Origin: Nitrospinae bacterium AH_259_B05_G02_I21
Lineage (GTDB): Bacteria; JADFOP01
NCBI GenBank assembly: GCA_027717595.1
Contig: JALLOF010000002.1
Span: 29,324 to 93,323 of the forward strand
Length of the DNA: 64,000 bases
Reading direction: 5' to 3'
Shown here in pieces: positions 5,603 through 60,493 of the stretch (position 1 is its first letter; the number at the start of each line of letters is the position of its first letter). The notes under the pieces were generated by a model. It saw only the letters and a program-made list of their open reading frames with translations, did no database searches and was not told where the DNA came from. Both the position numbers and the translations under genes were made by a program.

Positions 5603-7471
5603 TCACGAAAGGGATTGCTGGACAACTCTCCGCTCCACGTAACCTGTCTTGCCTGGAAAAGCCAGCTTCGTTTCCAAAATGGGTAGGGTCCAAGAATGCG
5701 CCTTCGCCCCATTTGTGGGAAGGCGGTAAAGCTTAATAGAATTGTTCCATATAACCTCCTCGGAGATCTCGCGCTCTCGACGGACTCTATCCGCCGGACA
5801 AGGAAGGGCGAGGTTGGTGCAAACCTTTAAGGCTAGGTCTAACAGTTCCATCCGCTTAGCGGTGAAAGGATCGGTGTTTGGAAAAACGGCAACAGGGTTT
5901 TGGCCGGGAAGATACGTCGCCATGAAGGCCAAGCGCTCCGGTTTACGATATTGGGTCTCGGAGGTGGCATAATAAAGCGGCAAGTCCAGCAACTCTACAC
6001 GCCTGGTCTGCCCCCACCGCTTCAAGTAGATAGCATTACGGTCGTTTGTGTGGTTCCGCGCTAAGGGGAGATAGGCCTTGGTGCCATGAGCCTCCCATAG
6101 AGCCGGCCTTCGGTGGGTTACGATGGCCTTTTCGCCACGCTCCCTCAGCCAGTGGGCCGCATCCTTGTAGCCAGAGCGAACCCGGTACAGGTAGCCGATA
6201 TGGGCCCCCTGGATTAAAAAGAAGGCCGCGAGAGCCAAAGCCAAAACGAAGGACCCAAGACGCCAGCGTCGGATAGCTTCGGCCGCCGCAATTCCTCCTG
6301 AAAGGGCTACGAAGATGGAGACATACGCCACGTTTCGTGGGTATGGAAGTTTGGAGGCGAAGACGAAGTAAAACAAAAAGGGGAAACCTAAACCGAACAA
6401 TACTAACAACTCTTCCGGCCTTCGGCCCTTCCACCAACGTCGGGCCACCATTGCCGTTCCAACGACCGCTAAAGCGGAGACCACCAGCCCCTCGCCGTAG
6501 AGGAAAGGCTGGATGCCGTAGGCCGAAATCTTGCTTCGAAAACCGTAGAAGAAACCTGAAGGGGACAGACTCCTGTGGCGGACCTTCCAAAGCTGTTCAA
6601 AAAATGTCATAAAGGGTCTGTCGTCGGTAAAAAGCCAAGAGAGATTATCACCCAAGACAACCAGAAAGTATGTAAGGGACGCCTCCACAATCACCAGGCA
6701 AATCAGCGCTCCCCCCAGCAGGGGGATCATTTGCCTTGCTAACGCCCGCCATTTGCCTTGCTTCAAAAAAGCGTAGATGGCCACAAAGCCCACGACGAGC
6801 AGATATGGGACGGAGCTTGGATGGATGGCAAAGGTAGCCCCGAGGCCGAATCCCGTCACCCAACCGAGAAAGCGCTTGGAGCGACCATCGGGAAAGCGCA
6901 AACTCGAAAGATAAGCAATCAAAGTCAAACAAAATACAAACATGGCGGCAGTTTGAGCGTAACCGCTACGCGACCAAATGATGTGATAACCCGAGGCGGC
7001 CATGAAAAGGGCGGCCGCCAACGCAGCCAATTCGTCCTCCCAGAGCTGGCGAGCGAGGAGAAACATAGTCAACACCGTAGCGCTTCCAAAAAGTGCGCTC
7101 CAGTAGAGAAGTCCATTGTATCCGGCATTGGGAACAACCAAGTAGAAGGCGCTTAAAAGGGCGTGATAAAGAGGCTTGTAGTAATAATTGCTTATGGGAA
7201 AAACATGGCGCGTTTCCAAGAACTGGATCACGTCTGTCCGTGTCTCCGATGAAAAGCCCGGCCCCTCAAAGGAGCGATCACTTAGCCAGGTAAGAAGAAG
7301 GGCAGTAGTCTTGGGGGAGAAATAATAAGCCGCCTCATTGTCATACTTCAGGCCCCGAACGTCTAGCTTGTAGACCCTAAGACCTAGGCCGAGCATTACG
7401 ATGAGGGCAAGACAAAGGGTAACCCATGGTCTAAGCCCATGCCTGTGGGGCGACTGAAAGGGAGAACTCAC
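5603..7471 (-). CDS. GT-C fold polytopic membrane glycosyltransferase (ArnT/PMT_2-like, putative)
   Basis: 622 aa with more than 10 hydrophobic helices. An acidic-dyad/aromatic motif (KYDNEAAYYF) sits in the first extracytoplasmic loop, as in ArnT/PMT-type GT-C enzymes. Confidence 0.5.
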   Translation of the reverse strand: MSSPFQSPHRHGLRPWVTLCLALIVMLGLGLRVYKLDVRGLKYDNEAAYYFSPKTTALLLTWLSDRSFEGPGFSSETRTDVIQFLETRHVFPISNYYYKPLYHALLSAFYLVVPNAGYNGLLYWSALFGSATVLTMFLLARQLWEDELAALAAALFMAASGYHIIWSRSGYAQTAAMFVFCLTLIAYLSSLRFPDGRSKRFLGWVTGFGLGATFAIHPSSVPYLLVVGFVAIYAFLKQGKWRALARQMIPLLGGALICLVIVEASLTYFLVVLGDNLSWLFTDDRPFMTFFEQLWKVRHRSLSPSGFFYGFRSKISAYGIQPFLYGEGLVVSALAVVGTAMVARRWWKGRRPEELLVLFGLGFPFLFYFVFASKLPYPRNVAYVSIFVALSGGIAAAEAIRRWRLGSFVLALALAAFFLIQGAHIGYLYRVRSGYKDAAHWLRERGEKAIVTHRRPALWEAHGTKAYLPLARNHTNDRNAIYLKRWGQTRRVELLDLPLYYATSETQYRKPERLAFMATYLPGQNPVAVFPNTDPFTAKRMELLDLALKVCTNLALPCPADRVRREREISEEVIWNNSIKLYRLPTNGAKAHSWTLPILETKLAFPGKTGYVERRVVQQSLS

Positions 7472-7495
7472 CTGCTGAATTCTTTTGTGGTTGTA

Positions 7496-8614
7496 TTAGG
7501 GGATACGGTTAAACAGTACTGTGGTTTCCAGGTTGCAAGAGTGAAAGCATTCGCGGCATGCGGACAGCTCGCCTCGAAGTTGTCGATATTCCTCGGATAC
7601 CCATATTTCCTTGAGGTTTTTCTCCTGGATATTACCGATGCTTCGTCTTAGCCCCATATATGTCACGCAGGGGAAAACACTCCCAAAGCAGTCGACGAAA
7701 CAAGTCGTGTAACCTGCATAGCATTGGATGGGAAGCTCCTCACCCCTCAAAGACCGTTTCAGCAGCTTTAGATAGCTCTCGGAATTCCCGATTATGCCAT
7801 TCGAGCGCTTTATCTCCAAAAGCTCATCTATAACACGATCGAGTTTTTCAGCATCGGAGACCTTGTGACGCGCCACGTATGAACGCTCAAGCCCCCCAGG
7901 AGAATAGTCATTATGGTAGTTATGGAGTGCCTCAAAGTACACTTGGTCAACCCCCACCTTCTCCGCAAGCTCCACCATGGGGATAACCTCGTCGAGGTTG
8001 GTCTCACTGACGCACATCCCTACGGACAACGCTACATGAGGGAAGGAACTCTCCCTGAGGGCCCTAAGATTGGCTATAGCATCAGTGGCCCGTTTGAAGG
8101 AACCCTTGCTTCCCCGAAGTCTGTCATGGGTCTCTGCGTCCACGCTGTCCAAGGATATTCCAACGGATTGAATCCCCGATTTGAGGAACTCCTTGGTGGT
8201 TGGTCGGTCAAGAAAATGGCCATTAGTAAAAACAGATACAGGAAGCCCCCTTTCGTCGCTATACTTGATTATTTCAAAAAAATCCTTCCTAAGCAGAGGT
8301 TCTCCACCCATAAAACCAATACCGGTGGTACCTATGCTGACGAACTCGTCCACCACCTTAAGCATTTGAGCCGTATCGAATTCCACCCTTTTTTGTTTCT
8401 TAAAGCGCACTGCCCTTTGAGGCAAATCGCACATAAAACAGCCAGCGTCGCACCCATAAGTGAGCACGAACCCTCCTAATATGGGCCCATGGAGGGGCTT
8501 GCCAAGCTGATGGGAAAGGGGTACCCCAACGTACTTCCAAGCCTGCTGTAAAAACCACCAAAAATCCAGCCTCTGAAGTCTTACTTTAGTTACATGCCAA
8601 TAGTATTTCTTCAC
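7496..8614 (-). CDS. radical SAM/SPASM-domain protein
   Basis: Cx3Cx2C (YGCDAGCFMCD). The C-terminal cysteine cluster (CYAGYTTCFVDCFGSVFPC...CRECFHSC) is typical of SPASM auxiliary Fe-S domains. The gene is visibly AT-richer than its neighbours. Confidence 0.75.
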   Translation of the reverse strand: MKKYYWHVTKVRLQRLDFWWFLQQAWKYVGVPLSHQLGKPLHGPILGGFVLTYGCDAGCFMCDLPQRAVRFKKQKRVEFDTAQMLKVVDEFVSIGTTGIGFMGGEPLLRKDFFEIIKYSDERGLPVSVFTNGHFLDRPTTKEFLKSGIQSVGISLDSVDAETHDRLRGSKGSFKRATDAIANLRALRESSFPHVALSVGMCVSETNLDEVIPMVELAEKVGVDQVYFEALHNYHNDYSPGGLERSYVARHKVSDAEKLDRVIDELLEIKRSNGIIGNSESYLKLLKRSLRGEELPIQCYAGYTTCFVDCFGSVFPCVTYMGLRRSIGNIQEKNLKEIWVSEEYRQLRGELSACRECFHSCNLETTVLFNRIP

Positions 8615-8654: not shown

Positions 8655-9470
8655 CTAGCCCTTTTCTGCCACCAACAACAGGCCGCTTCCCTCTTCTTCG
8701 CAAACCGAAGCGGCCCTTCCAATCCACGGGCCGTGGAGGTATTTGACCAGCCTCCTCGGCAAAAGACCCGGGCGACCAAGGATCCTCTCAATCTTAGCGC
8801 TAAGCCACCTGGAAGGAAGAAGTAACTCGAACAACCTGTGGCTTCGTTTATCAACGTAGTAGCGATGTAAAACTACATGAAGACCCACCTTCCTTAACTT
8901 TTCCTGCCACTCCTCTAACGAAAGAACATGAAGATGGGCGAATTTAGAATTTACCCACTGAGCCGACCAGCGTCCCAGCGATGCGAGTCCTAACGCCTCA
9001 AGGAAGTTCCTCACCAAAAGCCAATCCCCAAAGGCGGGATTCGGCACAGTCATAATTAGCCTGCCCCCTGGCTCCAAGACCCGGACGACCTCTCCCAACG
9101 TTTCATCCAGAGGCTCTACATGCTCAAGGACGCTGTTGGAAAAGACCGTCTTAAAAGATTCATCAAAGAAGGCCAAGGCGCTACTATCTCCCTTGACGAG
9201 ACCCCGGTAATTGGCCCTAGCCTTCGCCCGGTTAAGGTGAGAGGCAGCCAAATCGAGCCCTACTCCCACGGGTCTATCCACCAGGATTGAGGTGACCAAC
9301 CCATCACCACAGCCCAAATCCAAAAGGGGCTCTTCAAGGGTCACATCGGAGAGGGCCCGGATCTCGTGGGTCCTCCAGAGGGCGACGGCTACTGAATATT
9401 CCTCTAGAAACTTGAAGGGAACCCCATCGGCATTCACAATAATAACTCCTTTATAAGCCAAAATCAGCAT
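8655..9470 (-). CDS. class I SAM-dependent methyltransferase
   Basis: Motif I (LLDLGCGDGLVTS); motifs II/III (FDESFKTVFSNSVLEHV, VLEPGGRLIMTVPN). Confidence 0.7.
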   Translation of the reverse strand: MLILAYKGVIIVNADGVPFKFLEEYSVAVALWRTHEIRALSDVTLEEPLLDLGCGDGLVTSILVDRPVGVGLDLAASHLNRAKARANYRGLVKGDSSALAFFDESFKTVFSNSVLEHVEPLDETLGEVVRVLEPGGRLIMTVPNPAFGDWLLVRNFLEALGLASLGRWSAQWVNSKFAHLHVLSLEEWQEKLRKVGLHVVLHRYYVDKRSHRLFELLLPSRWLSAKIERILGRPGLLPRRLVKYLHGPWIGRAASVCEEEGSGLLLVAEKG

Positions 9471-9900
9471 CTCGTCAAGGCAAAGTGAAAGGCCTTATTG
9501 GAAAAGGGTACAGCATGCTCAACACCTACCACCTTCAATCCACGACTCCTAGCAGCCTCGAGAAAGTGGCCATAAGCACACCCTACTTCCAGAAGCCGCC
9601 CCTTGGCTTTCCAGCCCTCTACAGTATCCAGCACGGCTTCAAAAAAGCGGATCTTCACCGGCATGTGGTCTAAATAACCCTGATAGCCCCCCCCCTAACT
9701 TCACTCCGATTGTAAAAGTACCCGGGCCTGTACCGGCCTTGGGCAGTGTGAGGCTGTATCCGTGGGCTTACGTAAACAAGGCCGCATCCCCTGCACCAGA
9801 CTATCCGCTCCAAGCCTTTGCTAACCAAAACTCTACTGCTGTCCACACCACAGATGGAACACAGGACAGCTTCATATTTGTTAAAGATGTTAGGTGCCAT
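9464..9900 (-). pseudogene. remnant of a zinc-ribbon methyltransferase (paralog of 2320..3342): zinc-ribbon ORF 9670..9900 plus motif-I fragment 9464..9664, separated by a frameshift at a C9/G9 tract
   Basis: 9670..9900 encodes CSICG...CRGCGLVYVSPR (zinc ribbon). 9464..9664 encodes LLEVGCAYGHFLEAARSRGLKVVGVE (motifs I/post-I) and then stops. The two frames differ by +1 across the homopolymer 9687..9695. Even when fused the product would be only ~150 aa. Confidence 0.5.
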
Positions 9901-9909: not shown

Positions 9910-10629
9910 TTACTTCACGAAGAACAGATACTTTAGCCAAGCATAAACGAATCGATAACCATCTCTCCAAATGTTTATCTTGGAATCCCCGTGCTTTCTT
10001 CGAAACTCATGGGTGGGGACCTCCACGTATCGATACCCCCTCCGTAGGGTCTTGATAATCATTTCTTCCTCAATGGTAGCCATGTTTTCCTGCAGCTCCA
10101 AGCCCAAAGCCACATCGCGCCTTATAGCCCGGAAGCCGTTTTGGCTGTCGGTTATGTGAACCTTGCAGACCCAGTTGATACCGATGGTTATGACGGCGTT
10201 TCCGGCCTGTCGCGCAAAAAGCTCTAACTTACCAAACAGCTCCTCGCTCCCTCCTAACATTCGAGAACCGCCCACATGATCCGCCTGGTCCTCCAGAATG
10301 GGACCAATGAGCTTAGGAATATCTCTTGGATCATGGGAACCATCGGCATCTATAAAGACCAATACATCGCCCGTAGCTTCTTTGACCCCGAGCCTTATAG
10401 CATCGCCCTTGCCCTTTCCATTATCCAGAGTAACCCAGACCCCGTAACTCTTAGCGATGTCTCGCGTCTTATCGGTCGAATGGCCGTCCACTACCAATAT
10501 TTCATCGGCGAACGGCTTCACCCCTTCAATAACCTCACCAACCGTTTTTTCTTCATTCTTGGTAGGAATGACAACGGAAATATTCACAGGGCTACGCACC
10601 CCTGAAACCCTCACCCTGGGGAACCCCAA
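9910..10629 (-). CDS. GT2 glycosyltransferase, dolichyl/polyprenyl-phosphate sugar synthase (DPM1-like)
   Basis: ISVVIPTKNEE...VVDGHSTD...DADGSHD, a GT-A DxD architecture typical of Dol-P-Man/Glc synthases. Confidence 0.75.
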   Translation of the reverse strand: MGFPRVRVSGVRSPVNISVVIPTKNEEKTVGEVIEGVKPFADEILVVDGHSTDKTRDIAKSYGVWVTLDNGKGKGDAIRLGVKEATGDVLVFIDADGSHDPRDIPKLIGPILEDQADHVGGSRMLGGSEELFGKLELFARQAGNAVITIGINWVCKVHITDSQNGFRAIRRDVALGLELQENMATIEEEMIIKTLRRGYRYVEVPTHEFRRKHGDSKINIWRDGYRFVYAWLKYLFFVK

Positions 10630-10700: not shown

Positions 10701-11918
10701 CTAAGGCTCCACGGTTGAAGTGGGCACCTTGTGCCGCCCCTCTGGGCTGAGTTGAGCGCAGCCACGGAACCTTTCGTCCATGCGGCTACTGCTGGGTCCC
10801 GGCGCCCGAGGCACCTCGCGCCCTAAAAGTTCTTCATAGACGCCGGCCTCCCGGGCCTCCCAGATGGGCGCGTCGAACCGCCGGGCTTCCAGCAGTCCTT
10901 GCTTCGCACATCGGCGTGCCTCCCCGGGGTGGTCCAGAAGCCATTGAATAGCTCCTCTGAAGCCCTCTACCGTAGGAGCAACCCTGACCGCTGCTTGTCC
11001 GCCAATCTCTTGAAGGATCGGAATGTCTGATACTACGACGGGCAGACCGGCCGCCATTGCCTCAGCCACAGGCATGCAAAACCCTTCCAACAAAGTGGGC
11101 AGAGCGAAGAGGTCGGCGCGATGATAGGCACGATGAATCGCCGTATGGGGGATACGCTCGGTCAGCGCCAGTCGATCAGTCATTCCAAGACGGCGCGCAA
11201 GAGTCTCCAGGCGACCCCGCTCGGGCCCGCTACCAATGAAGTGAACTGCTACTTCCAGGGGAGCAACAGCTTCGAGCAGGCATGCCAGATTCTTTGAGGG
11301 GATGAAACGACTGACGGCCAAGATGGAGGGTGGGTCGTTTCGCGGCCACTGTTCCCCGTGCTCCGCCGTCGGAGCGAACCGGTCACATTCTATACGATTG
11401 TAAAGCAATTCGGGTCGTTGAGCGCCCATAGCCTGGGCATAACGCAGGACGTGTTCGCTAACGCAGAGTACCCGGTCAGCGCGCCGCAAGGTGTATTGTT
11501 CGAGAGCCCGCTCCACCGGCCCGAAACGGTTGCCCATCACTCGGCGCTTGTCACCAAAGTGAGTGTGGATGGATACCACAATTGGCCGTTTCCATCGCTG
11601 GGCTACGGCCACGGCTAGCGCGCCGCACCAGGACGGATCGTACGCCCTGATGACATCAGGCCGGACGGTTTTCACCACCCTGTTTAGCTCTCGCCAGACG
11701 GATGGCAGTGCCGTGGGCGACATGGCGCCAACGGGATGTACGGTGAGCCTCGCCTTGCCAAACGCCATATCCATGGGAGAAGGGTCTGATGGCTCCACCG
11801 TAAACTCGACCACATGTACCTCCTCGAAGGCATTCAGGGAGTTGTAGTAGCGATGTTTCAACTCACCCTTGGCATGATAGACCCTCAAAGGGCTAGCGAG
11901 GAAAACGCACAGCTTCAT
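10701..11918 (-). CDS. GT4 (GT-B) glycosyltransferase
   Basis: C-terminal glycos_transf_1 signature EGFCMPVAEAMAAGLPVVVSDIP; N-terminal GT4 donor-binding half. Confidence 0.8.
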   Translation of the reverse strand: MKLCVFLASPLRVYHAKGELKHRYYNSLNAFEEVHVVEFTVEPSDPSPMDMAFGKARLTVHPVGAMSPTALPSVWRELNRVVKTVRPDVIRAYDPSWCGALAVAVAQRWKRPIVVSIHTHFGDKRRVMGNRFGPVERALEQYTLRRADRVLCVSEHVLRYAQAMGAQRPELLYNRIECDRFAPTAEHGEQWPRNDPPSILAVSRFIPSKNLACLLEAVAPLEVAVHFIGSGPERGRLETLARRLGMTDRLALTERIPHTAIHRAYHRADLFALPTLLEGFCMPVAEAMAAGLPVVVSDIPILQEIGGQAAVRVAPTVEGFRGAIQWLLDHPGEARRCAKQGLLEARRFDAPIWEAREAGVYEELLGREVPRAPGPSSSRMDERFRGCAQLSPEGRHKVPTSTVEP

Positions 11919-12703
11919 TGCGCCTTACTGAAAGCTTGAGGATTTAGCACAACGGCCCCGCTCTTTCGCGGCGGGAGCAACCCAAGCCACCGGCGCACCT
12001 CATATTTCAGTCTAGGCCAAGGTTGCTGGATGGGCCCCCGAGACCACCCCACGTCGGGCCTCAATCCCACTAGTCCGACGAAGTAGCGGCGGTAAGGAAG
12101 TCCCTTTATTTCTGGTTGGTTGGGCGCAAGCGCTGCAATAGTGGGATCGGCAGCTATCTCCTCCCAGGAGGCCAGCCGGCCCTCCGGGTGCCGGAAGGCA
12201 TTTCTATAATAGGGATCGAATAAGTGCCACCGGCCATCCACATTTATGGCCGTAAGATAAAGCTTACCTTTCCTGGCCGGATCCTGCAGATAAAACCAAG
12301 TGCTGTTAAAGCCGGCATAGGTCGCTAGAGTACTCAAGACATCGTTGACTTGGTCTCCCGTGCCATAGCCCCGCACAATAATATGCCAAACGTGGTCATC
12401 CACTACTGGAAGTCCGGAGGGTTGGGGCTGGATATTTCGGACGGTCCAGTCAAAAAGAGCCATGACCCGCTCCTCATGGCTTCTTCGGCCCTCGAGAATT
12501 TCTCTTACCAGCTGCTTATAGTGCCAATGTCGAGTGATGAAACTCCCCACCTTTAGGTACAAAGGCAAGATTTTTTCCTGGAGTTCATAGTTTACCGCAA
12601 AGCGGGTGGCAACGGGTATTTGTCCGACCATAGCAGCCAAAATGGATATCAAAAAAAGGAGAACGAAGCCCCCGACGAGCGATTGTCGAGCTTTCCACCT
12701 CAT
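11915..12703 (-). CDS. membrane-anchored transglutaminase-like domain protein lacking the catalytic Cys and His (probably inactive paralog of 38624..39874)
   Basis: N-terminal TM helix. The core region GYGTGDQ...YLTAINVDGRWHLFDP aligns with GVGWCDQ...HTLLLVKHHGAWRVYDP of 38624..39874 but reads Cys->Gly/Thr and His->Tyr. The 4-bp overlap with the upstream GT4 start suggests co-translation. Confidence 0.45.
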   Translation of the reverse strand: MRWKARQSLVGGFVLLFLISILAAMVGQIPVATRFAVNYELQEKILPLYLKVGSFITRHWHYKQLVREILEGRRSHEERVMALFDWTVRNIQPQPSGLPVVDDHVWHIIVRGYGTGDQVNDVLSTLATYAGFNSTWFYLQDPARKGKLYLTAINVDGRWHLFDPYYRNAFRHPEGRLASWEEIAADPTIAALAPNQPEIKGLPYRRYFVGLVGLRPDVGWSRGPIQQPWPRLKYEVRRWLGLLPPRKSGAVVLNPQAFSKAQ

Positions 12704-12707
12704 ATAA

Positions 12708-47016: not shown

Positions 47017-47055
47017 TGCAATTAATTGCAGCCGAGGCGCTGGTGAGTGAAGGAA

Positions 47056-50533: not shown

Positions 50534-51092
50534 AGGACTAGCAATGGACGATACAGGTGGGAATAGCTGTACAAAATCAAGGGGATACCCAATATCTTCT
50601 TGATTGGAGAACAAATTCACTAGATTAATCCCCAGCATTCAAATGAGGAGAGGAACCATGATACTATCTAGCGGAGAAAGGTATCTGACGGACGGCTTTG
50701 TTGTGCAGAAGGAGTTAACGGCTATGCGGCTCTATCCGCCCATCGTCAACATGCTGTTCGGAGGCAGGCTTCAATACATGGCTGTACTTAGCGTAGAAGG
50801 GGCTTAATGCGCTCGGGTCCCCGCAAGGCTTCGATGCACGCCGACGATCCTTAGTGCCTCTTGCCTCTAGTCGTTTTAGCAAGGCTCTGTGAAAAACGGT
50901 TTAACAGGTATGCCCTCCTCCACAAACGTGTAAAACGCATAGCCCCGGGGGCCCAGCCATCGCCTCCAGGCCGATTGCTCCCCGCCCCACTCGATCATGA
51001 CAAGCCCAACACAATGTTAGGAAACTCTCCCTCTGATCCTCTCCCTCTGAGAGCGCCCCCCTAGGAGAGCTTCACTAAAGGAAAGGAAACGG

Positions 51093-52145: not shown

Positions 52146-52428
52146 TCAAAGACCTCATATTGTACTGAACGAACTCCGTCAAGACAACGGTCCGACCACC
52201 GGGGGACGATCACCGCTGCACCTCTCCAAGCGACGGCCAGCGGGCGGGGCACTTCACAATTCCATATACTCTGCCTCAAGTGCCCCCGCATGGTTGCATC
52301 CGCCGCTTCAAGTGATACCATGGAAGCTAACTGTCCCCTCCCCGGGGACCCTGTTCGCACAAGCCCCCCCTTTTGGAAGCACGGGGCGGTGGCCTGAACA
52401 CGCCTCCTACACGTGCCGAGGGAGGACA

Positions 52429-53463
52429 ATGAGCCAGGAGACCCTGCTAGTCGTCGGCGGCGCCGGGTACATCGGCTCGCACTGTACGACTCTTTTGTTG
52501 GAGCACGGCTATAACGCCTTGGTCCTCGACGACCTCTCCACGGGCCACCGGGAGGCGGTCCCTGAGGAGGCTTCCCTCATAATCGGGGACCTCGGCGACG
52601 CCGCTCTACTGAACAACATATTTGAGCGGCACGATATTTCGGCTGTTTTCCACTTCGCCGCGCTCGCCATCGTCTCCGAATCGCCCCGCCAGCCATTGAC
52701 CTACTACGAAAACAACGTCGCCAAGACCGCCGTCTTGCTCCAGGCCATGGCGAGCCACGAGGTTCCTTGCTTCATCTTCTCCTCAACGGCGGCGGTCTAC
52801 GGAGAGCCGAGCGCCGACGTGCTGACCGAGGATCATCCGACTAGTCCGGTCAATCCGTACGGCCGCTCCAAGTTGATGGTTGAGGCGATGCTGTCCGACG
52901 CCGCCGAAGCCCTGGCGCTTCGCTACGCTTCGCTGCGCTATTTCAATGCCGCCGGCACCGACCCTTCAGGGCGGTGGGGTGAAGACCACCGCCCGGAGAC
53001 TCATCTCATCCCCCGAATCTTGTTGGGTACGCTGGCCCACCAAGGTGTGGCCATCCACCCGGCGGCCGATGTCCCGCCCTGGATCGAGGTCTACGGCACG
53101 GACTACGACACACCCGACGGGACATGCGTCCGCGACTTCATTCACGTCACCGACCTCGCCGAGGCCCACCTCCTGGCCCTCCGCCACCTCCGGCAGGAGG
53201 GGGAGAGCCTGGTCTGCAACCTGGGCTCTGAGACGGGCTTTTCCGTTCGCCAGGTCATCGAGGCGGCCGCCCGTGTGACGGGGACATCCCTGCCCGTCCA
53301 GGAAAAGCCACGACGTCCCAACGAGCCCTCCCGGCTGGTCGCCAGCGCGGCGTTCTCTCGTCGCCTCCTGGGGTGGAATCCCCGCTTCAGCGACCTGGAG
53401 ACCATCATTCAAACGTCATGGGAGTGGCACAAAGCACACCCCCGAGGGTACGCCCAGTCATAG
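52429..53463 (+). CDS. galE: UDP-glucose 4-epimerase
   Basis: LLVVGGAGYIGSH; SSTAAVYGEP; NPYGRSKLMVE (YxxxK); FNAAGTDPSGRWGED; VRDFIHVTDLAEAHL; C-terminal WEWHKAHPRGY. Clearly GalE-like. ATG at 52429 with a GGGAGGA SD. Confidence 0.85.
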   Translation: MSQETLLVVGGAGYIGSHCTTLLLEHGYNALVLDDLSTGHREAVPEEASLIIGDLGDAALLNNIFERHDISAVFHFAALAIVSESPRQPLTYYENNVAKTAVLLQAMASHEVPCFIFSSTAAVYGEPSADVLTEDHPTSPVNPYGRSKLMVEAMLSDAAEALALRYASLRYFNAAGTDPSGRWGEDHRPETHLIPRILLGTLAHQGVAIHPAADVPPWIEVYGTDYDTPDGTCVRDFIHVTDLAEAHLLALRHLRQEGESLVCNLGSETGFSVRQVIEAAARVTGTSLPVQEKPRRPNEPSRLVASAAFSRRLLGWNPRFSDLETIIQTSWEWHKAHPRGYAQS

Positions 53464-53586: not shown

Positions 53587-54654
53587 TCAACTTCCTCTTC
53601 CGTGAGCTCCGGGAACATGGGAAGGCTCAACACCTCGCGGGCTGCCCGATCGCTTTCCGGGAAGGCCCTTTCCATGTAGCCCCCCCCCTGCAAAAGCCTC
53701 CTGGGCCGGGAGCGACACGGGATAGTGTATTGCCGCTCCGATGCCCTGGTCGGCCAGATGGCGCTTCAGGTCGTCGCGTCGGGCCGCCCCGATGGTGTAC
53801 TGATGGTATACGTGATGGGACCCCGGGGCCTCCGTCGGGCACACCACGCCTGAGACCTTCTCGAGGCCAGCCGTGTAGGCTGCGGCGTGGCGACGGCGAG
53901 CATCGTTCCACCCCTCCAGGTGAGGGAGCTTGACCCGAAGGACGGCGGCCTGGAGAGTGTCCAGGCGGCTATTGTATCCCACCACCCTGTGCAGATAGCG
54001 CTCGGACGCCCCGTGAACGCGAAGCTGGCGGACCAGCTCGGCCAGGGCCGCATCGTCCGTGACCACCATCCCCCCGTCGCCGTAGGCCCCGAGGTTCTTC
54101 GTCGGAAAGAAGCTGAAACAACCGACATCCCCCAAAGATCCGACGACGCGCCCCTGGGAGCGGGCACCGAAGGCCTGTGCGGCATCCTCGATGACGGCCA
54201 AGCCGTGTCGAGCCGCCAGCGCGCTAATCGCCTCCATGGGGGCAGGATGGCCGAACAGGTGGACGGGAATAATGGCTTTGGTCCTCGAGGTGACGGCCGC
54301 TGCCGCCGCACCGGGGTCTAGGGCGTAAGCCTGCGGGTCAACATCCACAAAGACGGGCATGGCGCCACAGTAGATGACAACCTCCGCCGTTGCGATGAAA
54401 GTGAAGGCGGGCACGAGGACTTCATCGCCCGGACCGACGCCGAGAGCCAGCAGGGCCAAGTGGAGGGCGTCCGTGCCTGAGGCCACCCCGACGGCGTGGC
54501 TGGCTCCGCAAAAGGCGGCGACCTCCTCCTCCAGGGCCTCTACCTCGCGGCCCAAGACGAACTGGCCGCTCTCGATGACCCGTCGGATGGCTTCATCCAT
54601 CGCCTCGCGCAAGAAGGCGTATTGGCGCGTCAGGTCGAAAACCGGGATGGACAT
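53587..54654 (-). CDS. DegT/DnrJ/EryC1/StrS-family PLP-dependent sugar aminotransferase; 3' end frameshifted at a G9 homopolymer
   Basis: MSIPVFDL...SGQFVLGREVEALE...GTDALHLAL...FSFFPTKNLGAYGDGG...HYPVSLPAQEAF. After the G9 tract (53680..53688) the frame gives a non-homologous tail. The alternative frame encodes the conserved ...GYMERAFPESDRAAREVLSLPMFPELTEEEVDRVVRAVQAWAEGA* ending at 53544. Confidence 0.8.
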   Translation of the reverse strand: MSIPVFDLTRQYAFLREAMDEAIRRVIESGQFVLGREVEALEEEVAAFCGASHAVGVASGTDALHLALLALGVGPGDEVLVPAFTFIATAEVVIYCGAMPVFVDVDPQAYALDPGAAAAAVTSRTKAIIPVHLFGHPAPMEAISALAARHGLAVIEDAAQAFGARSQGRVVGSLGDVGCFSFFPTKNLGAYGDGGMVVTDDAALAELVRQLRVHGASERYLHRVVGYNSRLDTLQAAVLRVKLPHLEGWNDARRRHAAAYTAGLEKVSGVVCPTEAPGSHHVYHQYTIGAARRDDLKRHLADQGIGAAIHYPVSLPAQEAFAGGGLHGKGLPGKRSGSPRGVEPSHVPGAHGRGS

Positions 54655-54894
54655 CGCTTCCTCGGTGAGGGATGGCAAGGGGCCGTAAGGCCAGCGGCCA
54701 TTAAACCACCCCGGCCGGACACGGCGCAAGAGGGATGTGGAGGGGCACCAACTTCTTTCCAGCCATTTCCATCTGACTCGGACCATGGATGACGAACCGA
54801 TCGCTCCTCCTCGCGCCTTTCATCGTTGACTCCCACCGCGAAGCCGCTACAATTGCCTCGGCTGCACCTGGCTTAGAGGGATAACGGAGCTCCC

Positions 54895-57363
54895 GTGCCC
54901 ACGACGTCCGCCACCAGATACCGGGTCGTCTTTTTTCTCCTGGCGCTGCTCGTCCTGATAGCGCTGCCGTCCCGCCCCGTGGGCGTGGCCGATGGCTTGC
55001 CTGCCGACCACCCCCTCGACCTGTGGCTTGTGCTGGTGCTGGTCGGGGGATTTTTCGTCCTTCCCTGGCGGATCGAGCGGCACCGGGCCCCGCGGCTGGC
55101 CCTGGCCTTGCTCGCCGTGGCTATCGTCAAGCTCGCTCTGGCCACCACCAGCCTCCCCCACGGCCTGGCGGCCCGCTACTTCGCCAACGCCGCCTTCGAG
55201 GGGCCCCCCGAGGCCTCCCTCGAGTACCGCCTGCCCGGGGCCACCCGCCTCGACTCCACCATCGCCTTCGCCCCCGTGGGCTTCGCCTGGGGCGAAAAAC
55301 CTTTCCCCCTTTGGTTCTTCAACGACTCCCGCCGATTTAATTTCTACAAGCCCGGGGAGCCCAACCGCCGACGTCTGCCCTTCAGCGTGCGCTGGGACGG
55401 CTTCATAAGAGCCCCTTCTGCCGAGCCCCTTACCTGGAGGCTTGAGACCGACCAAGAGGCAACTCTAAGCCTCCTTGGCCAACCCATCGTCTCAACGACC
55501 GAGGGCCCGCCCGAGGCCTCAGTTACCCTCAGCCCAGGCTGGCACCCCATTAGCGTAACCTACGCATACAAAGGCCAGGGTGCGCGGAACCTGGAGCTCG
55601 AGTGGGAACGAAACGGCTCTTTTCGGCCCGTCCCTCCATCAGCCCTGATGCCCTTCCGGCCCTCGCCTCTTCAAGAGCGGTGGGACCAGCTGGTGGTTAC
55701 GCCCGGCTGGGTGCTCTTCGTCCTGCAATTTCTCGTCGTGGGATGGATCTTGTTGGAGGGTTTGTGGGGAGAGTCGAAGGAGCGGTTCCTAACTGAGCAG
55801 GCGGCCGTCTACTTGATGGTGGTAGTGCTGGTGGGTTTCGGGACCGTCTCGCTCGCCAAGCGGGGCCGATCATCGGATTGGAACTTCCTAAACGGAGGAG
55901 ACGACCCTCTTACCTACGAAACAGCCGCCAGGCAAATACTCATAGAACGAGATCCGCTAAACAGAATGATACCGAACAAGCCCTTTTACTATATGGTGGG
56001 TTACCGTTACTTCCTGGCTGGAACCCATGCTTTACTCGGCGAGAGCAAGGCGATGGTCGTCCTGACACACTACATTCTGCTGGCAGTGGCCTGCGCCCTG
56101 CTTTACTACCTGATACGAATCCTGGCTCCTCCCGGGCCGGCCTTATTTGCAGCCGCCCTTCTCTTTTCTGGTCAGGCTCATGGAACAGTCTACCGGTGGG
56201 CCACCGAGCTCTTCCCAACCATGCTAGGCCTCGCCCTAACCGGGGCAATGCTCCTAGCGCTGGCCCACTGGGAGCGGCAACCCACTCTCTGGGGTGCAGC
56301 AGGAAGCGGTGTCCTAGCGGGCCTAGCAACCATTGTACGGCCCAACTTCCTCGTGTTCCTCCCCTTCGCCATCCTGTGGATGGGGATAGCATTACCCCAT
56401 CCAAGGGCCAAACGGTGGCAAGGGGCGGCGGTTGCCCTTCTGGCAATGACCTTCACCATTGCACCGGTGACCTGGCGAAACTGGCACGTTTCGGAACGCT
56501 TCGTGCTCCTCGTTAATAGCGGCCCCACCATGCTACTGCAGGGAAACAATCCTCCGCCAACGGTGGACCTCTCGAGGACTGTGACATCGAGGAGTCTCAA
56601 GATTTCGCTACGCCAAAGCCCATCCGGGGAGCTTAAGAAACACACAAAGGTGCTGAGGGATCTATTCAATGACCCCTTGGCGGAGAAGACTCAAACGGGG
56701 GCCATTCGAAGAGATACGCTCGAGATTCAGGGGATGGTCAACAAGGTTATCCACTTAGTTGACGTGGAGGTAATAGACCCATATCCTTTATATCAGCAGT
56801 GGAACTTGGCCCCCCAAACCCGAGAGGTCCTGGAGTACCTCCGCCAGCAACCAGGAAATTTCATCAAGGGACTTGGCCGCAAGGCTCTCCAAACACTGGG
56901 ATTCGCCTATCCGTTCGCCCCAGCCCTTCTGCTGCTCCACCTCGCCTATCTCCTAGGAGCCGTTCTACTTTGGCGGGCCGGAGTGGCTCGACGCCTGGCC
57001 ATTCTGCTCCATGCCTTCGTTCTGTCGCAATGGTTGGTTCTCGTCATCGTGAAGCCCGGACCCCACTTGCCCAAAACCCAACTGCCAACGTTCTTCGTCG
57101 CCTTCGGGTTCGCAGCCCTCCTGATCGTCTCATGGACGGCCGCCGCCATCGAAGGCCGCCCCCCACCGAGCATAGTGCCAAGACGAAAGAAGTGGTCCCC
57201 ACGTGCGCGCATCCTCGGCGGGGCGGCAGCGATGGGGCTCCTTGGCGCGCTCACCTACCTTCCGCGCCTGCCTCTGCTCATCGCATTGCTCGCCGGAGCG
57301 GTCTGGAGCCTGCGGCACACACCACACCACACGGCTCTCGGCGCTTCAGCCTCCCCACCGTAA
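54895..57363 (+). CDS. PA14-like domain / GT-C fold membrane glycosyltransferase fusion protein (paralog 2 of 3)
   Basis: Same architecture as 43092..45560 (GLAARYFAN...FSVRWDGFIRAPSAEPLTWRL...; NGGDDPLTYETAARQ; multi-TM). GTG start at 54895 with a GGAG SD 5 nt upstream. Confidence 0.6.
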   Translation: MPTTSATRYRVVFFLLALLVLIALPSRPVGVADGLPADHPLDLWLVLVLVGGFFVLPWRIERHRAPRLALALLAVAIVKLALATTSLPHGLAARYFANAAFEGPPEASLEYRLPGATRLDSTIAFAPVGFAWGEKPFPLWFFNDSRRFNFYKPGEPNRRRLPFSVRWDGFIRAPSAEPLTWRLETDQEATLSLLGQPIVSTTEGPPEASVTLSPGWHPISVTYAYKGQGARNLELEWERNGSFRPVPPSALMPFRPSPLQERWDQLVVTPGWVLFVLQFLVVGWILLEGLWGESKERFLTEQAAVYLMVVVLVGFGTVSLAKRGRSSDWNFLNGGDDPLTYETAARQILIERDPLNRMIPNKPFYYMVGYRYFLAGTHALLGESKAMVVLTHYILLAVACALLYYLIRILAPPGPALFAAALLFSGQAHGTVYRWATELFPTMLGLALTGAMLLALAHWERQPTLWGAAGSGVLAGLATIVRPNFLVFLPFAILWMGIALPHPRAKRWQGAAVALLAMTFTIAPVTWRNWHVSERFVLLVNSGPTMLLQGNNPPPTVDLSRTVTSRSLKISLRQSPSGELKKHTKVLRDLFNDPLAEKTQTGAIRRDTLEIQGMVNKVIHLVDVEVIDPYPLYQQWNLAPQTREVLEYLRQQPGNFIKGLGRKALQTLGFAYPFAPALLLLHLAYLLGAVLLWRAGVARRLAILLHAFVLSQWLVLVIVKPGPHLPKTQLPTFFVAFGFAALLIVSWTAAAIEGRPPPSIVPRRKKWSPRARILGGAAAMGLLGALTYLPRLPLLIALLAGAVWSLRHTPHHTALGASASPP

Positions 57364-57457: not shown

Positions 57458-59710
57458 ATGGCCCCCGCCACGCGATACCGGGTTGTCTTTTTTCTCCTGG
57501 CGCTGCTCGTTTTGATTGCGCTGCCGGCTCGTCCGGTGGGCGTGGCCGACGGGCTGCCGGCCGACCATCCCCTCGACCTCTGGATCGTGCTGGTGCTGGT
57601 CGGGGGGTTTTTCGTCCTTCCCTGGCGGATCGAGCGGCACCGGGCCCCGCGGCTGGCCCTGGCCCTGCTCGCCGTGGCTATCGTCCAGCTCGCCGTCGCC
57701 ACCACCAGCCTCCCCCACGGGCTGGCGGCCCGCTACTACGCCAACGCCGACTTCCAAGGCTCCCCCGAGGCCTCCATCGAGTACCGCCTGGCCGGGGCCA
57801 CCCGCATCGACCCCACCATTGCCTTCGCCCCCGTGGGCTTCGCCTGGGACGCCAAGCCCTTCCCCCTCTGGTTCTTCAACGATTCCCGCCGCTACAACTT
57901 CTACCGGCCCGATGAGCCCGACCGCCGCCACCTCCCCTTCAGCGTGCGGTGGGACGGCTTCATCCGCGCCCCCTCGAGCGAGCCTCTAGCCTGGCGGCTG
58001 GTGACCGAGCAGGAGGCGACCCTCGAGCTGTTCGGCCAACCCATCGCCTCGACCAGAGACGGGCCCTCCAAGGTCACGATCGCCCTCTCCCCCGGCTGGC
58101 ACCCCATCAGCCTCACCTACGTCTACCGGGGAGCCGGCCCCAAGAGCTTGCGCCTCGAATGGAACGACAACGGTCCCTTCCACCCCGTTCCTTCCTCGGC
58201 GCTGATGCCCTACCACACCTCCCCGCAGGCGGACCGGTGGGACGGGGCGACGGCTGGGGCGGCGCAGGTGCTCTTTGTCCTGCAATTTCTCGCCGTTGTG
58301 TGGGTCATGGCCTCGGGGCTGTGGGGTGAATCGAAGAAGCGGTTCCTGACAGAGCGGACGGCGGTCTACGCTCTGGTTGTCGTCATGGTCGCCTTCGGAA
58401 CCCTCTCGCTCGGAAAGCGAGGACGCTCGCCCCACTTGAACGTCTTAAACGGCGGCGACGACCCCCTCGTCTACGAGACCGCCGCAAGACAAATCCTGCT
58501 CGATCGAGACCCTCTCAACCGGATGCCCTCGACCCAGCCCTTTTACTTCACTGCCGGCTACCGTTACGTGCTCGCTACGGCCCACGCCCTCATGGGCCCC
58601 TCAAAGGCCATGGTCGTCCTGCTCCAGTATTGCTTCCTCGCCATCGCCTGCGCCCTGCTCTACTACCTAGCCAGGCGGCTCGCCCCGCCGGGTGTGGCGC
58701 TGCTCGCAGCGGCCCTTCTCTTCGCCGGCCAGGGGCGCGGAGCCCTCTACCGCTGGCCGACCGACCTCTTCCCCGCCGTTGCGGGCATTCTCATCGTAGC
58801 AGCCCTTCTCTTACAACTGACCGCCTGTTGGGAGCGGCCCTCCTGGCAGCGGGCGGCGGGAGCAGGCGTCCTCTTTGGCCTGGCCTGCATGGTCCGCTCG
58901 AATATCCTCGCCTTCGGCCCCATCGCCTTCCTCTGGCTCGCCTTGAGCCGAGCCCTCCCTCCGCGCCGGGCCGCCGCCACCGCCTGTGCCTTCGCCATCG
59001 CCGGGGCGCTCACCATCGCCCCCACGACGCTGCGCAACTGGCACGTCTCCGGGGAGTTCGTGCTCCTGAACAAGGGGGGAAGCATCAACTTCTGGCAGGG
59101 CAACCAACCCCCCGGGGACCTTGACCTCTCCCGGGTCGGAAAGTCCCCGCTCTATAGGCGCCTGGGCTTCGGGCACCGAACTCAGGAGGTCTTGGAATAC
59201 GCGCGCCAACGACCGGTGGCGTTCCTTGGAGGGCTGGGCAGCAAAGCGCTCCTCCTCATGGGCCTGCCGCCGCACTTCTCACTCAGCCTCCTCGCCCTGC
59301 ACATAAGCTATCTCATCGGAGCAAGCCTCCATTGGCGCTGGGGGCGAGACCGATGGCTGGCGGTGCTCCTCCACGGCTTTGTCGCCAGCCAATGGGCGCT
59401 CTTGATTCTCCTGAAGCCTTGGCCCCACGAGCCAAAAAACCAGCTCCCCACCTTCCTCGTCGCATTCGCCTTCGCAGCCCTGTTCCTCGCGTCGATGGCC
59501 GTCTACGCACTCGGGGGCCGGTCCCCACTGTCCCGTCCAGGGATGGCGACGACCCCCTCACCCATTCCCAGGCTCGCCTCCGGGGTCGCAGCGGCAGCAT
59601 TCCTTGCCGCCATTACCTACACCCCCCGCCTCCCTCTGCTCATCCCCTTGCTCATTTGGGTCGCCTGGAGGCTTCGGCGAGCCCCAAGCCCCCTTGCTCT
59701 TTCCCCTTGA
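57458..59710 (+). CDS. PA14-like domain / GT-C fold membrane glycosyltransferase fusion protein (paralog 3 of 3, shorter second periplasmic loop)
   Basis: MAPATRYRVVFFLLALL... aligns with the other two N-termini. PA14-like block GLAARYYANADFQGSPEASIEYRL...FSVRWDGFIRAPSSEPLAWRL; NGGDDPLVYETAARQ. The listed ORF start at 57203 is an out-of-context upstream extension overlapping paralog 2. Confidence 0.6.
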   Translation: MAPATRYRVVFFLLALLVLIALPARPVGVADGLPADHPLDLWIVLVLVGGFFVLPWRIERHRAPRLALALLAVAIVQLAVATTSLPHGLAARYYANADFQGSPEASIEYRLAGATRIDPTIAFAPVGFAWDAKPFPLWFFNDSRRYNFYRPDEPDRRHLPFSVRWDGFIRAPSSEPLAWRLVTEQEATLELFGQPIASTRDGPSKVTIALSPGWHPISLTYVYRGAGPKSLRLEWNDNGPFHPVPSSALMPYHTSPQADRWDGATAGAAQVLFVLQFLAVVWVMASGLWGESKKRFLTERTAVYALVVVMVAFGTLSLGKRGRSPHLNVLNGGDDPLVYETAARQILLDRDPLNRMPSTQPFYFTAGYRYVLATAHALMGPSKAMVVLLQYCFLAIACALLYYLARRLAPPGVALLAAALLFAGQGRGALYRWPTDLFPAVAGILIVAALLLQLTACWERPSWQRAAGAGVLFGLACMVRSNILAFGPIAFLWLALSRALPPRRAAATACAFAIAGALTIAPTTLRNWHVSGEFVLLNKGGSINFWQGNQPPGDLDLSRVGKSPLYRRLGFGHRTQEVLEYARQRPVAFLGGLGSKALLLMGLPPHFSLSLLALHISYLIGASLHWRWGRDRWLAVLLHGFVASQWALLILLKPWPHEPKNQLPTFLVAFAFAALFLASMAVYALGGRSPLSRPGMATTPSPIPRLASGVAAAAFLAAITYTPRLPLLIPLLIWVAWRLRRAPSPLALSP

Positions 59711-59788
59711 CCCTGGTGGCCGATCTTTTATGATGGCCGTTGGAAGGCGGTGTGACGCGAGAGGAACCCATTACCAGAATCGCCCACG

Positions 59789-60493
59789 GTGGAGGCTCTC
59801 GAAGCGATGAAGCTCTCCGTTATCGTCCCCGCATACAACGAGCGGCCGTTCATTGAAGAGATCCTTCGCCGCGTCGAGGCCGTACCCTTCGACAAGGAGA
59901 TCATCGTCGTAGATGACGGCTCCACCGACGGGACACGAGAGGTCCTGGAGAAGCTTGAGGCGGAGGGCGGAATCACGGTCCTCTACCATCCGCGAAACCG
60001 CGGAAAGGGCGCCGCCATCCGAACGGCCCTGCCCCACGTCAGCGGCGAGCTTGTCATCATCCAGGACGCCGACCTCGAGTACGACCCCGACGACTACCCA
60101 GACCTCATCGCGCCATTCGAGAAAGGCCTGTGCGACGTCGTCTACGGAACCCGGCTGGTGCGAGGCAAGGCCCAGCGGGTTCACCTCTTCTGGCACTACG
60201 TCGGCAACCGGTTCCTCACCCTCGTCACCAATCTTCTCTTCAACGCCACCCTCTCGGATATGGAGACCGGCTACAAGGTCTTCAAGACGGACCTCCTCAA
60301 GAGTCTCAAGCTCCAGGCCAACCGCTTCGACATCGAACCGGAACTGACGGCCAAGGTGCTGAAGCGCCGCTGCCGAGTCTTCGAGGTGCCCATCGCCTAC
60401 TACGGGCGCAATTACGACGAGGGAAAGAAAATCACCTGGCGTGACGGACTGGTGGCACTGTGGACGCTCCTGAAATATCGTCTGCGTGACTGA
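59789..60493 (+). CDS. GT2 glycosyltransferase, polyprenyl-phosphate sugar synthase (DPM1/GtrB-like)
   Basis: LSVIVPAYNERPFI...VVDDGSTDGT...IQDADLEYDP (GT-A, DxD), 234 aa, immediately downstream of the tandem PA14/GT-C genes. Confidence 0.75.
   Translation: MEALEAMKLSVIVPAYNERPFIEEILRRVEAVPFDKEIIVVDDGSTDGTREVLEKLEAEGGITVLYHPRNRGKGAAIRTALPHVSGELVIIQDADLEYDPDDYPDLIAPFEKGLCDVVYGTRLVRGKAQRVHLFWHYVGNRFLTLVTNLLFNATLSDMETGYKVFKTDLLKSLKLQANRFDIEPELTAKVLKRRCRVFEVPIAYYGRNYDEGKKITWRDGLVALWTLLKYRLRD

Follow-up and report, generated by a model that had tools for sequence, protein, structure and literature searches.

Nitrospinae bacterium AH_259_B05_G02_I21 carries, within a 64,000-nucleotide stretch of DNA (positions 1–64000, hereafter the window), six large membrane proteins resembling GT-C glycosyltransferases, three DPM1-like GT2 enzymes, a Wzx flippase, two PglC-like initiating transferases, and a flippase-like UPF0104 protein. 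Do these proteins constitute one periplasmic, polyprenyl-phosphate-sugar-dependent glycosylation system of unusual size, as a preliminary description of this DNA had proposed? Our analysis leads to a partly different picture, which we consider probable: the window holds two neighboring loci for cell-surface glycans from an uncultured bacterium of Nitrospinota type, and in these loci a known three-component scheme of extracytoplasmic glycosylation is present several times over. What is new is an uncharacterized family of GT-C proteins with a PA14 domain (PA14-GT-Cs) and, above all, a domain within it that is derived from ribosomal protein L30.

We mapped 48 probable genes in the window and compared all of them with Pfam. 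The open reading frame (ORF) map, Pfam, and NCBIfam together recovered the inventory above in full, with every member at or close to the place first assigned to it. All six GT-C candidates matched the Pfam families PMT or PMT_2 with E-values of 1e-4 to 1e-8, a hidden Markov model classification that identifies them as GT-C enzymes and not as transporters or ligases. Four scored at or above the curated Pfam gathering cutoff (22.7 bits for PMT and 26.1 bits for PMT_2): GT-C #1 (5603–7471, minus strand; PMT, 27.5 bits), GT-C #3 (15393–17336, minus strand; PMT_2, 32.8 bits), and the PA14-GT-C paralogs B (54895–57363, plus strand; PMT_2, 27.1 bits) and C (57458–59710, plus strand; PMT_2, 33.2 bits). 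GT-C #2 (12708–14078, minus strand; PMT_2, 22.3 bits) and PA14-GT-C paralog A (43092–45560, plus strand; PMT_2, 24.3 bits) fell below it. GT-C #1 has 622 residues, ~11 hydrophobic spans, and a C-terminal soluble part of ~200 residues; GT-C #2 is compact (456 residues) and lacks a large periplasmic domain; and GT-C #3 (647 residues) carries ~240 residues of extra N-terminal transmembrane (TM) helices. Paralog A (822 residues) combines three N-terminal TM helices, a PA14 domain, a GT-C core, and the L30-derived insert, which is also present in B (822 residues) and absent from C (750 residues). By hydropathy, all six proteins are polytopic, with ~10–19 hydrophobic spans each. Each also contains a D-[DE] motif (DNE, GDE, SDD, GGDD) directly after the first core helix, on a membrane side that we infer; this is the position at which GT-C enzymes bear their catalytic acidic residues. 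The motif reads 'KYDNEAAYY' after TM1 of GT-C #1, 'SGDEGLYF' in GT-C #2, 'SDDGQAYGRYAAMI' in GT-C #3, and 'GGDDPLTYETAARQIL' in paralog A.

The two proteins below the cutoff were accepted as GT-C enzymes on separate grounds, GT-C #2 because of its fold and paralog A because it is 77% identical to paralog B. An AlphaFold2 (AF2) model of GT-C #2, built from eight homologs, reached a pLDDT of 76, and its 28 best Foldseek matches in the PDB were all GT-C enzymes, including STT3, AglB, PglB, ArnT, GPI mannosyltransferase, AftA, ALG9, WaaL, and ALG6 (match probabilities of 1.00 for most and 0.80–0.99 for the weakest; TMq mostly 0.3–0.47). The AF2 model of paralog A was poor (pLDDT 49). We rejected assignment of the GT-Cs as Wzy or WaaL, since they matched PMT/PMT_2 rather than Wzy_C and the fold matched STT3 and ArnT, with WaaL appearing only at rank 25. 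When the PA14-GT-C profile was aligned with the other three GT-Cs by hhalign, matches were weak (E-values of 8.5e-4 over 229 columns for GT-C #3, and 0.085 and 0.076 for the others); thus, apart from the PA14 trio, the six GT-Cs are not close paralogs.

Three GT2 enzymes are candidates for the synthases that would supply these GT-Cs with lipid-linked sugars. The first (9910–10629, minus strand; 239 residues) matched the NCBIfam models for AglJ (152 bits), dolichyl-phosphate-hexose transferase, PpgS, and ArnC, and in the PDB it matched the dolichol-phosphate-mannose synthase of Pyrococcus (5mlz; 1.2e-18 over residues 14–218) as well as ArnC, across the whole catalytic domain. The second is the N-terminal domain of a GT2–methyltransferase fusion (18242–19636, minus strand), which is DPM1/PgfS/ArnC-like over residues 1–224 (AglJ, 79.7 bits; PgfS, 70.9 bits; ArnC, 58.2 bits). 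The third (59789–60493, plus strand; 234 residues), the partner of a PA14-GT-C, matched 5mlz at 3.8e-21 and ArnC at 1.6e-19 over residues 4–213, is DPM1/ArnC-like by NCBIfam as well, and contains 'QDADL', the DXD motif of the GT-A catalytic domain. AglJ was the best NCBIfam match of all three, which also matched ArnC, dolichyl-phosphate-hexose transferase, and PpgS, with PgfS second for the fusion. Likeness to DPM1 and ArnC thus extends over the full catalytic domain, and processive synthases (PgaC, NodC) match these proteins only over the first ~100 residues, so the GT2s are not processive enzymes. By hydropathy, all three lack TM helices, a form known from PpgS and type-II DPM1. None attained a curated equivalog cutoff, and all fell far below (e.g., 152 bits against 325 for AglJ); the sugar therefore cannot be named from sequence. 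In the fusion protein, a GT2 domain and an S-adenosylmethionine (SAM) methyltransferase domain share one polypeptide, an arrangement that hints that the same chain may methylate the lipid-linked sugar or its product.

The genes fall into two blocks. Locus 1 (157–39874), a Wzx-type glycan operon of ~40 kb encoded entirely on the minus strand, embeds three GT-Cs that are only distantly related to one another, along with two DPM1-like GT2s. Locus 2 (40486–60493, plus strand; ~20 kb) is the PA14-GT-C locus and is split by a phage-derived insertion. Genes are closely packed and co-oriented within each locus in the ORF map, and precisely between the two lies a remnant of an IS30-type transposase (39871–40194, minus strand), a 107-residue ORF that matches HTH_38 (63.7 bits) and lacks the catalytic domain. 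Besides its three PA14-GT-Cs and its GT2, locus 2 encodes two SDR sugar-nucleotide epimerases/dehydratases upstream of paralog A (40486–43089, plus strand; Pfam Epimerase/GDP_Man_Dehyd and NCBIfam), the UPF0104/LPG_synthase_TM membrane protein (51093–52145, minus strand; PF03706, 157.5 bits; TIGR00374 'flippase-like domain', 52 bits against a cutoff of 43.2), a GalE UDP-glucose 4-epimerase (52294–53463, plus strand; TIGR01179, 395.8 bits against a cutoff of 262), and a DegT/PseC/ArnB-like sugar aminotransferase (53587–54786, minus strand; DegT, 390 bits).

The insertion in locus 2 (45993–51092) encodes an HNH endonuclease, a PD-(D/E)XK exonuclease, an XRE repressor, and a small-terminase-like protein, and was delimited from PHROGs, Pfam, and its flanking repeats; no integrase was seen in it. 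The element is ~5.4 kb long (the stretch with both repeats is 45695–51390), and its G+C content (GC) is 0.51–0.54 compared to 0.59–0.64 in the flanks. Two copies of the UPF0104 gene's 3′ end, 90% identical, flank the element as 298-nt direct repeats (45695–45992 and 51093–51390); the left copy is an orphan 3′ end on the minus strand that corresponds to LPG_synthase_TM positions 249–302 and has 88% amino-acid identity to the C-terminus of the intact protein. This looks like the footprint of an element that entered the UPF0104 gene at its 3′ end while leaving the gene whole; locus 2 would have been contiguous beforehand, and the element is no part of the glycosylation machinery.

Paralogs A and B have a dS of ~0.65, and both are 63–64% identical to C at a dS of ~1.0; dN/dS is 0.2–0.3 throughout the trio and 0.22 overall for A versus B. 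The best reading of the PA14-GT-C trio is that its members are lineage-specific paralogs; the corresponding module is single-copy on short contigs of relatives. With two loci separated by an IS30 fragment, a 5.4-kb phage-derived element inside the second, and half of the GT-Cs related as paralogs at 63–77% identity, the unusual size attributed to the system is not supported, because both the closeness of two loci and recent paralogy push up the number of GT-Cs.

The supposed rarity of such clusters outside actinobacteria is likewise not supported, on the same grounds and in view of the wider distribution of the family. An exhaustive search with protein A found 1,940 representative clusters at E ≤ 1e-3 and 84 at E ≤ 1e-30, and distant members of the PA14-GT-C family bear Pfam PA14 together with PMT_2. 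A scan of genome contigs yielded two distant loci only. A Chloroflexota metagenome-assembled genome (MAG; JBBQBU010000002.1, L001 5817–16263) contains four consecutive GT-C-type genes in 10.4 kb, encoding a PMT_2 protein (1331 residues), a PA14-PMT_2 protein (732 residues), a DUF2079 protein (688 residues), which we take to be of GT-C type from its Pfam clan, and a second PA14-PMT_2 protein (764 residues). This row adjoins a GT4-family MraY/WecA-type transferase and an SDR enzyme, and its GT-C density exceeds anything in the window; thus, dense GT-C clusters are not confined to actinobacteria.

Closer relatives show which parts travel together. NCBI lists a protein 100% identical to GT-C #2 under Nitrospinae bacterium AH_259_B05_G02_I21, where it bears the name 'glycosyltransferase family 39 protein' and is encoded on a 104,786-bp contig; paralog B is also found under that organism. 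The single amplified genome AH-259-F20 contains identical or near-identical copies of window genes; beyond these two genomes, the closest relatives come from metagenome bins of Tectimicrobiota and Nitrospinota. AH_259_B05_G02_I21 is itself a single-cell genome, and the plate label AH-259 denotes single-cell genomes from Atlantis Massif sediment in a study that does not name AH_259_B05_G02_I21 or AH-259-F20 and does not mention glycosylation (PMC8406227). Two relatives' contigs, L005 and L006, share the order DegT or SDR, one PA14-GT-C, a GT2 of 228–234 residues, a ParA-like gene, and a DnaJ/HTH_25 gene, with the same right boundary as in the window; these contigs are short (7.5–9.5 kb), and the single PA14-GT-C copy is a count per contig, not per genome. 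In L005 the DegT gene occupies the same position as in the window. A homologous 378-residue SDR adjoins the PA14-GT-C in L006 and L007, the latter with the order PMT_2, SDR, PA14-GT-C. On L011, from an independent metagenome, a UPF0104 gene is convergent to an L30-bearing PA14-GT-C. The adjacency of synthase and GT-C that marks three-component systems is thus present in the window, for paralog C and the third GT2 (57458 and 59789), and since the same pair recurs in L005 and L006, it is a conserved unit. ParA/CbiA-type ATPase and DnaJ/HTH_25 genes lie directly 3′ of the GT-C/GT2 pair in the window (60673–62177, plus strand), in L005 (4932–6400), and in L006 (4782–6292).

The other part of the original proposal, glycosylation in the periplasm from polyprenyl-phosphate sugars, stands in terms of the classes of the parts, the chemistry predicted for them, the GT-C/GT2 pairing in L005 and L006, and the UPF0104 gene of L011; a single system of unusual size is not supported. 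For locus 1, the PglC-like transferases would start an oligosaccharide linked to undecaprenyl diphosphate, GT4 and GT2 enzymes would lengthen it, the methyltransferases, radical-SAM enzymes, deacetylase, amidotransferase, and NeuB-type synthase would supply or tailor unusual sugars, and Wzx would flip the product. For the GT-Cs and the DPM1-like GT2s we infer the following route, including its donor, flippase, acceptor, and periplasmic site of action. GalE, the SDR enzymes, and the aminotransferase could plausibly make a nucleotide sugar for the GT2, and the soluble GT2 would load one sugar derived from it onto polyprenyl phosphate at the inner membrane face. The lipid-linked sugar would then be flipped, with UPF0104 as the candidate flippase, and each GT-C would attach it at a defined site of a glycan that has already been exported, while the PA14 domain holds the acceptor.

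This scheme, described for the modification of O-antigens and other glycans, is widespread and includes loci with several GT-Cs (PMC11127046, citing Mann & Whitfield 2016). As in the Gtr systems of Shigella and Salmonella (GtrA/GtrB/Gtr*) and in ORF12–15 of Citrobacter youngae (PMC11127046), genes for a polyprenyl-phosphate-sugar GT2 and a GT-C are adjacent in or beside a Wzx-type locus. The C. youngae ORF12 GT-C likewise bears an extra carbohydrate-binding domain, and such a module has been shown experimentally to bind the acceptor glycan (PMC11127046). The PA14 domain is the obvious analogue, by likeness of arrangement, of this acceptor-binding module. In paralog A it occupies ~43365–43877 (plus strand), where alignment profile A1 matched PA14 structure 6qdi at 3.7e-11 and the AF2 model of low pLDDT gave PA14 fold matches; it sits in the segment that links TM3 to TM4, which by helix count faces the same way as the DD loop. 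The window departs from the described three-component systems in several ways: a PA14 domain, set between TM helices in the N-terminal part, serves as the carbohydrate-binding domain, the GT2s have no C-terminal TM helices such as GtrB possesses, six GT-Cs accompany three synthases, and two GT-Cs have an L30-derived domain.

The flippase is a further difference. The dedicated small flippase (GtrA/SMR) or MATE flippase of three-component systems is missing from the window, and UPF0104 would be the only flippase candidate for the lipid-linked sugar. A neighborhood predicted by comparative genomics contains the same three families (UPF0104, an AglD-like GT2, and a PMT/STT3-like protein) and led to the proposal of UPF0104 as the flippase (Makarova et al. 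2015, PMC5898192). The window differs from that neighborhood in encoding GT2 and UPF0104 as two proteins and in having PA14 in the GT-C.

Several points weigh against our reading as set out so far. UPF0104 homologs are otherwise tied to phospholipid flipping (MprF; GpgF, PMC12713373), and among the window's ORFs, including small ORFs in gaps, we found no GtrA/SMR-type flippase, only UPF0104 and Wzx. Three donor synthases face six GT-Cs. Pfam detected no Wzy, Wzz, or WaaL in the window that could act on the Wzx substrate. The GT-C Pfam scores are near threshold, none of the six attains an NCBIfam equivalog, and PDB sequence searches with GT-C #1, #3, and #2 found no GT-C; the search with PA14-GT-C profile A1 retrieved PA14 domains only. 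The two loci may serve different glycans, and our reading of the proteins draws on sequence and models.

These weaknesses invite other explanations. An unlikely one is that locus 2 is an Arn-like system for envelope charge, in which an amino sugar loaded by the GT2 is attached by the GT-Cs to lipid A or the lipopolysaccharide core, in the manner of ArnB/ArnC/ArnT or of Rhizobium Rgt. An aminotransferase, an ArnC-like GT2, and PMT_2-type GT-Cs do occur in one locus, as in the Arn pathway; the aminotransferase reaches 214 bits with the ArnB model, ArnC structures are among the matches of the GT2 (1.6e-19), and the PA14-GT-Cs have in their first loop an acidic motif ('DDPLTYETAARQIL...NKPFYF') that resembles the ArnT signature. 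Rhizobium moreover has several ArnT-like Rgt GT-Cs with one donor synthase. The aminotransferase, however, scores as well or better on PseC and LegC and below every cutoff. No ArnA-type formyltransferase/decarboxylase or ArnD adjoins it, and ArnA, ArnD, ArnE, and ArnF were not found among the window genes, where GalE and generic SDR enzymes occur instead; no GT-C has an ArnT (GT83) NCBIfam match, no protein reaches an Arn equivalog score, and lipid A is a less fitting acceptor than a polysaccharide for a lectin-type domain such as PA14.

Equally in the range of the unlikely is that some or all of the GT-Cs are PMT-like protein O-glycosyltransferases that use a polyprenyl-phosphate sugar on secreted, S-layer, or lipoproteins. 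GT-C #1 matches the PMT family itself, NCBI names the proteins for glycosyltransferase family 39, and the best GT2 match, AglJ, is an enzyme of an S-layer glycoprotein pathway. Against this, none of the six GT-Cs has the MIR or PMT_4TMC domain in Pfam that would mark a protein O-mannosyltransferase (GT39), and none has an STT3 Pfam match, an STT3-type C-terminal domain, or the WWD motif expected of STT3, PglB, or AglB; GT-C #2 has no soluble C-terminal domain at all. The window contains no candidate target protein, and the genes are embedded among polysaccharide-assembly genes together with the PA14 carbohydrate-binding domain.

The missing Wzy and WaaL could be taken to mean that the GT-Cs themselves polymerize or branch a lipid-anchored glycan, as in the lipomannan, lipoarabinomannan, and arabinogalactan of actinobacteria, a reading that we judge quite improbable. 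Several different GT-Cs adjoin donor synthases here as they do in the mycobacterial pathway (PMC3485146), and the actinobacterial arrays of Ppm1 with PimE, MptA-D, Emb, and Aft likewise pair a TM-less synthase domain with many GT-Cs that use lipid-linked monosaccharide donors (PMC3485146). Wzx and two PglC-like initiators nevertheless indicate a repeat-unit pathway and set this locus apart from those arrays, profiles often miss Wzy, which could also lie outside the window, the relation to the Emb, Aft, and Mpt families does not go beyond superfamily and shared fold, and half of the GT-Cs here stem from recent paralogy. The source organism is presumably diderm, unlike actinobacteria. Very improbable, finally, is that the six GT-Cs come from unrelated pathways and cluster without common function in a recombination-prone surface-glycan region, for which the IS30 fragment, the phage-derived insertion, the GC range of 0.50–0.66 across the region, and the ParA and DnaJ-type neighbors of the PA14-GT-C/GT2 module in relatives can be cited, but which is opposed by the close packing and common orientation of genes within each locus and by the conserved GT-C/GT2 adjacency, and which bears on how far the system extends, not on how its modules work.

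Within the reading that we prefer, two neighboring loci using a known scheme, the unexpected feature is the L30-derived insert. Residues 567–633 of paralog A (67 residues; 44790–44990, plus strand) are a complete in-frame copy of ribosomal protein L30 (Pfam Ribosomal_L30, 42 bits; TIGR01308, 49.8 bits, above the cutoff of 44.65), and the insert of paralog B (56578–56778, plus strand) scores 25.7 bits on TIGR01308, below that cutoff. The insert aligns to residues 3–57 of the 59 in Bacillus subtilis uL30. In paralog A it is 79% identical to genuine 62-residue L30 proteins of Nitrospinota bins (e.g., P0030), and it covers L30 from residue 2 to the last, which is the entire rpmD reading frame minus start and stop. 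Its site lies exactly between the sequences 'DLSR' and '(I)D(T)DPLYERW' of insert-free homologs; 10 of the 13 aligned family sequences lack it there, and nearly all alignments in the exhaustive search break at query residue ~560–570. The only other carrier found was P0054, a 286-residue C-terminal gene fragment (L011 2349–3209) from the unrelated run SRR29093009. We rejected an assembly chimera or a chimera from multiple displacement amplification, given that two diverged paralogs carry the insert in frame, as does the fragment from a sequencing run unrelated to theirs.

The insert has departed from a ribosomal protein in several respects. All 24 of its database relatives are stand-alone proteins of 39–77 residues, and uL30 is a basic protein of ~60 residues from a ribosomal operon, whereas the insert is internal to an 822-residue membrane glycosyltransferase. 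In all three inserts the 'GLGL(K/T)KLH' loop of L30 is replaced by an acidic stretch that is four residues longer, and by residue count the net charge is ~0 (13 K/R and 13 D/E), compared to the clearly basic P0030. Between A and B, dN/dS is 0.38 for the insert and 0.20 for the rest of the protein at a dS of ~0.6, indicating that the insert has been kept under selection since the duplication. We take the insert to follow TM7, going by the ArnT motifs (the PL1 signature and the cytoplasmic 'KRW' loop), and its loop to be the equivalent of PL4, which in ArnT is periplasmic and becomes ordered on donor binding. A positive-inside count weakly favors the periplasmic placement (13.7 in and 4.1 out, versus 12.6 and 6.2), and by analogy with ArnT the insert probably lies in a periplasmic loop.

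From these observations we propose, as a serious possibility that falls somewhat short of being probable, that the lineage's own complete L30 was captured in frame into the large, probably periplasmic loop after TM7 and retained as a working accessory domain, which lost its basic charge and GLGL loop, survived a duplication under purifying selection, and is found in an independent metagenome. That the domain binds the acceptor or a partner is a guess. To our knowledge, it would be the first case of a membrane glycosyltransferase acquiring an extracytoplasmic domain from a ribosomal protein.

The remaining genes of locus 1, all on the minus strand, fit the equipment of a Wzx-type operon. At its head stand two TPR proteins that have one TM helix apiece, at the N-terminus (37598–39874; Pfam TPR families and hydropathy), followed by two PglC-like monotopic phosphoglycosyltransferases of 205 and 204 residues (35808–37133; Bac_transf, 128 and 119 bits), which matched only the C-terminal catalytic part of the WbaP/WcaJ models and have one N-terminal hydrophobic span each. 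A tailoring block (26003–34488; Pfam and NCBIfam) encodes a methyltransferase, a B12-radical SAM enzyme, a polysaccharide deacetylase, a GT4-N protein, a radical SAM enzyme, and an AsnB-type amidotransferase. Further along are a GT4 protein (22504–23901; Pfam), the Wzx-type flippase (20783–22267; Polysacc_synt_3 and Polysacc_synt, 14 hydrophobic spans), a GT2 with C-terminal TM helices that is not DPM1-like (19801–20961; Pfam, and MftF/EpsD-like by NCBIfam), and, all by Pfam, a methyltransferase (17269–18333), two GT4 glycosyltransferases (14069–15316 and 10701–11918), a second methyltransferase (8655–9470), and a radical SAM/SPASM enzyme (7496–8614). A soluble protein of 744 residues in mid-operon (3329–5563) has no TM helices and no Pfam, NCBIfam, or PHROG family, its sole trace being Glyphos_transf at E 0.014. 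The left edge is formed by a SAM methyltransferase (2320–3342; Pfam), another radical SAM/SPASM enzyme (1219–2289; Pfam), and a NeuB-type nonulosonic acid synthase (157–1200; Pfam NeuB, 270 bits, plus SAF; NCBIfam NeuB, 316 bits, and PseI, 292 bits, neither of which attains its equivalog cutoff). In total, locus 1 encodes four radical-SAM enzymes (one B12-dependent), at least six SAM methyltransferases, and five GT4-type proteins.

GT-C #2 is accompanied by a 262-residue single-TM protein of no known family (11915–12703, minus strand). Small GT-Cs of this type keep GT4 and methyltransferase neighbors and a partner gene of ~263 residues in the relatives' contigs L008–L010. A GT-C of ~450 residues followed by a single-TM protein of ~262 residues is seen in the window at 11915–14078 (minus strand) and in L008 at 2944–5087, and the two may form a conserved two-gene unit.

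Some ORFs of locus 1 look incomplete. A 135-residue ORF with a radical-SAM fragment (25268–25675, minus strand) lies just upstream of a 324-residue ORF without a family (24272–25246, minus strand), and short ORFs at 9464–9664 and 9670–9900, one with a zinc-ribbon-like CxxC pair, lie upstream of the methyltransferase gene at 8655–9470 (minus strand). Both sets (24272–25675 and 8655–9900) may be broken genes, arising from frameshifts, pseudogenes, or errors of single-cell sequencing. GC is strongly mosaic over the whole window, from 0.50–0.51 at 8–10 kb and 26–30 kb to 0.63–0.66 at 52–60 kb, which is consistent with a surface-glycan region built from parts of differing origin. The window contains no tRNA genes and no Rfam families.

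The locus is a further example of a known strategy and not a new one. Its value for the catalog of glycosyltransferases lies in uncharacterized GT-C subfamilies that add to the candidate enzymes for decorating periplasmic glycans in little-studied phyla: the compact 450-residue GT-C with its conserved 260-residue partner, and the PA14-fused GT-C with at least 84 representative clusters. It also supports UPF0104 as a flippase partner where GtrA is absent. If the proposed origin of the L30-derived domain is true, it would provide a clean, datable case in which a universal ribosomal protein was reused as a domain of an unrelated membrane enzyme; with the insert-free ancestral state and the donor gene family still visible, the early steps of such an exaptation, loss of charge and remodeling of a loop, would be directly observable.

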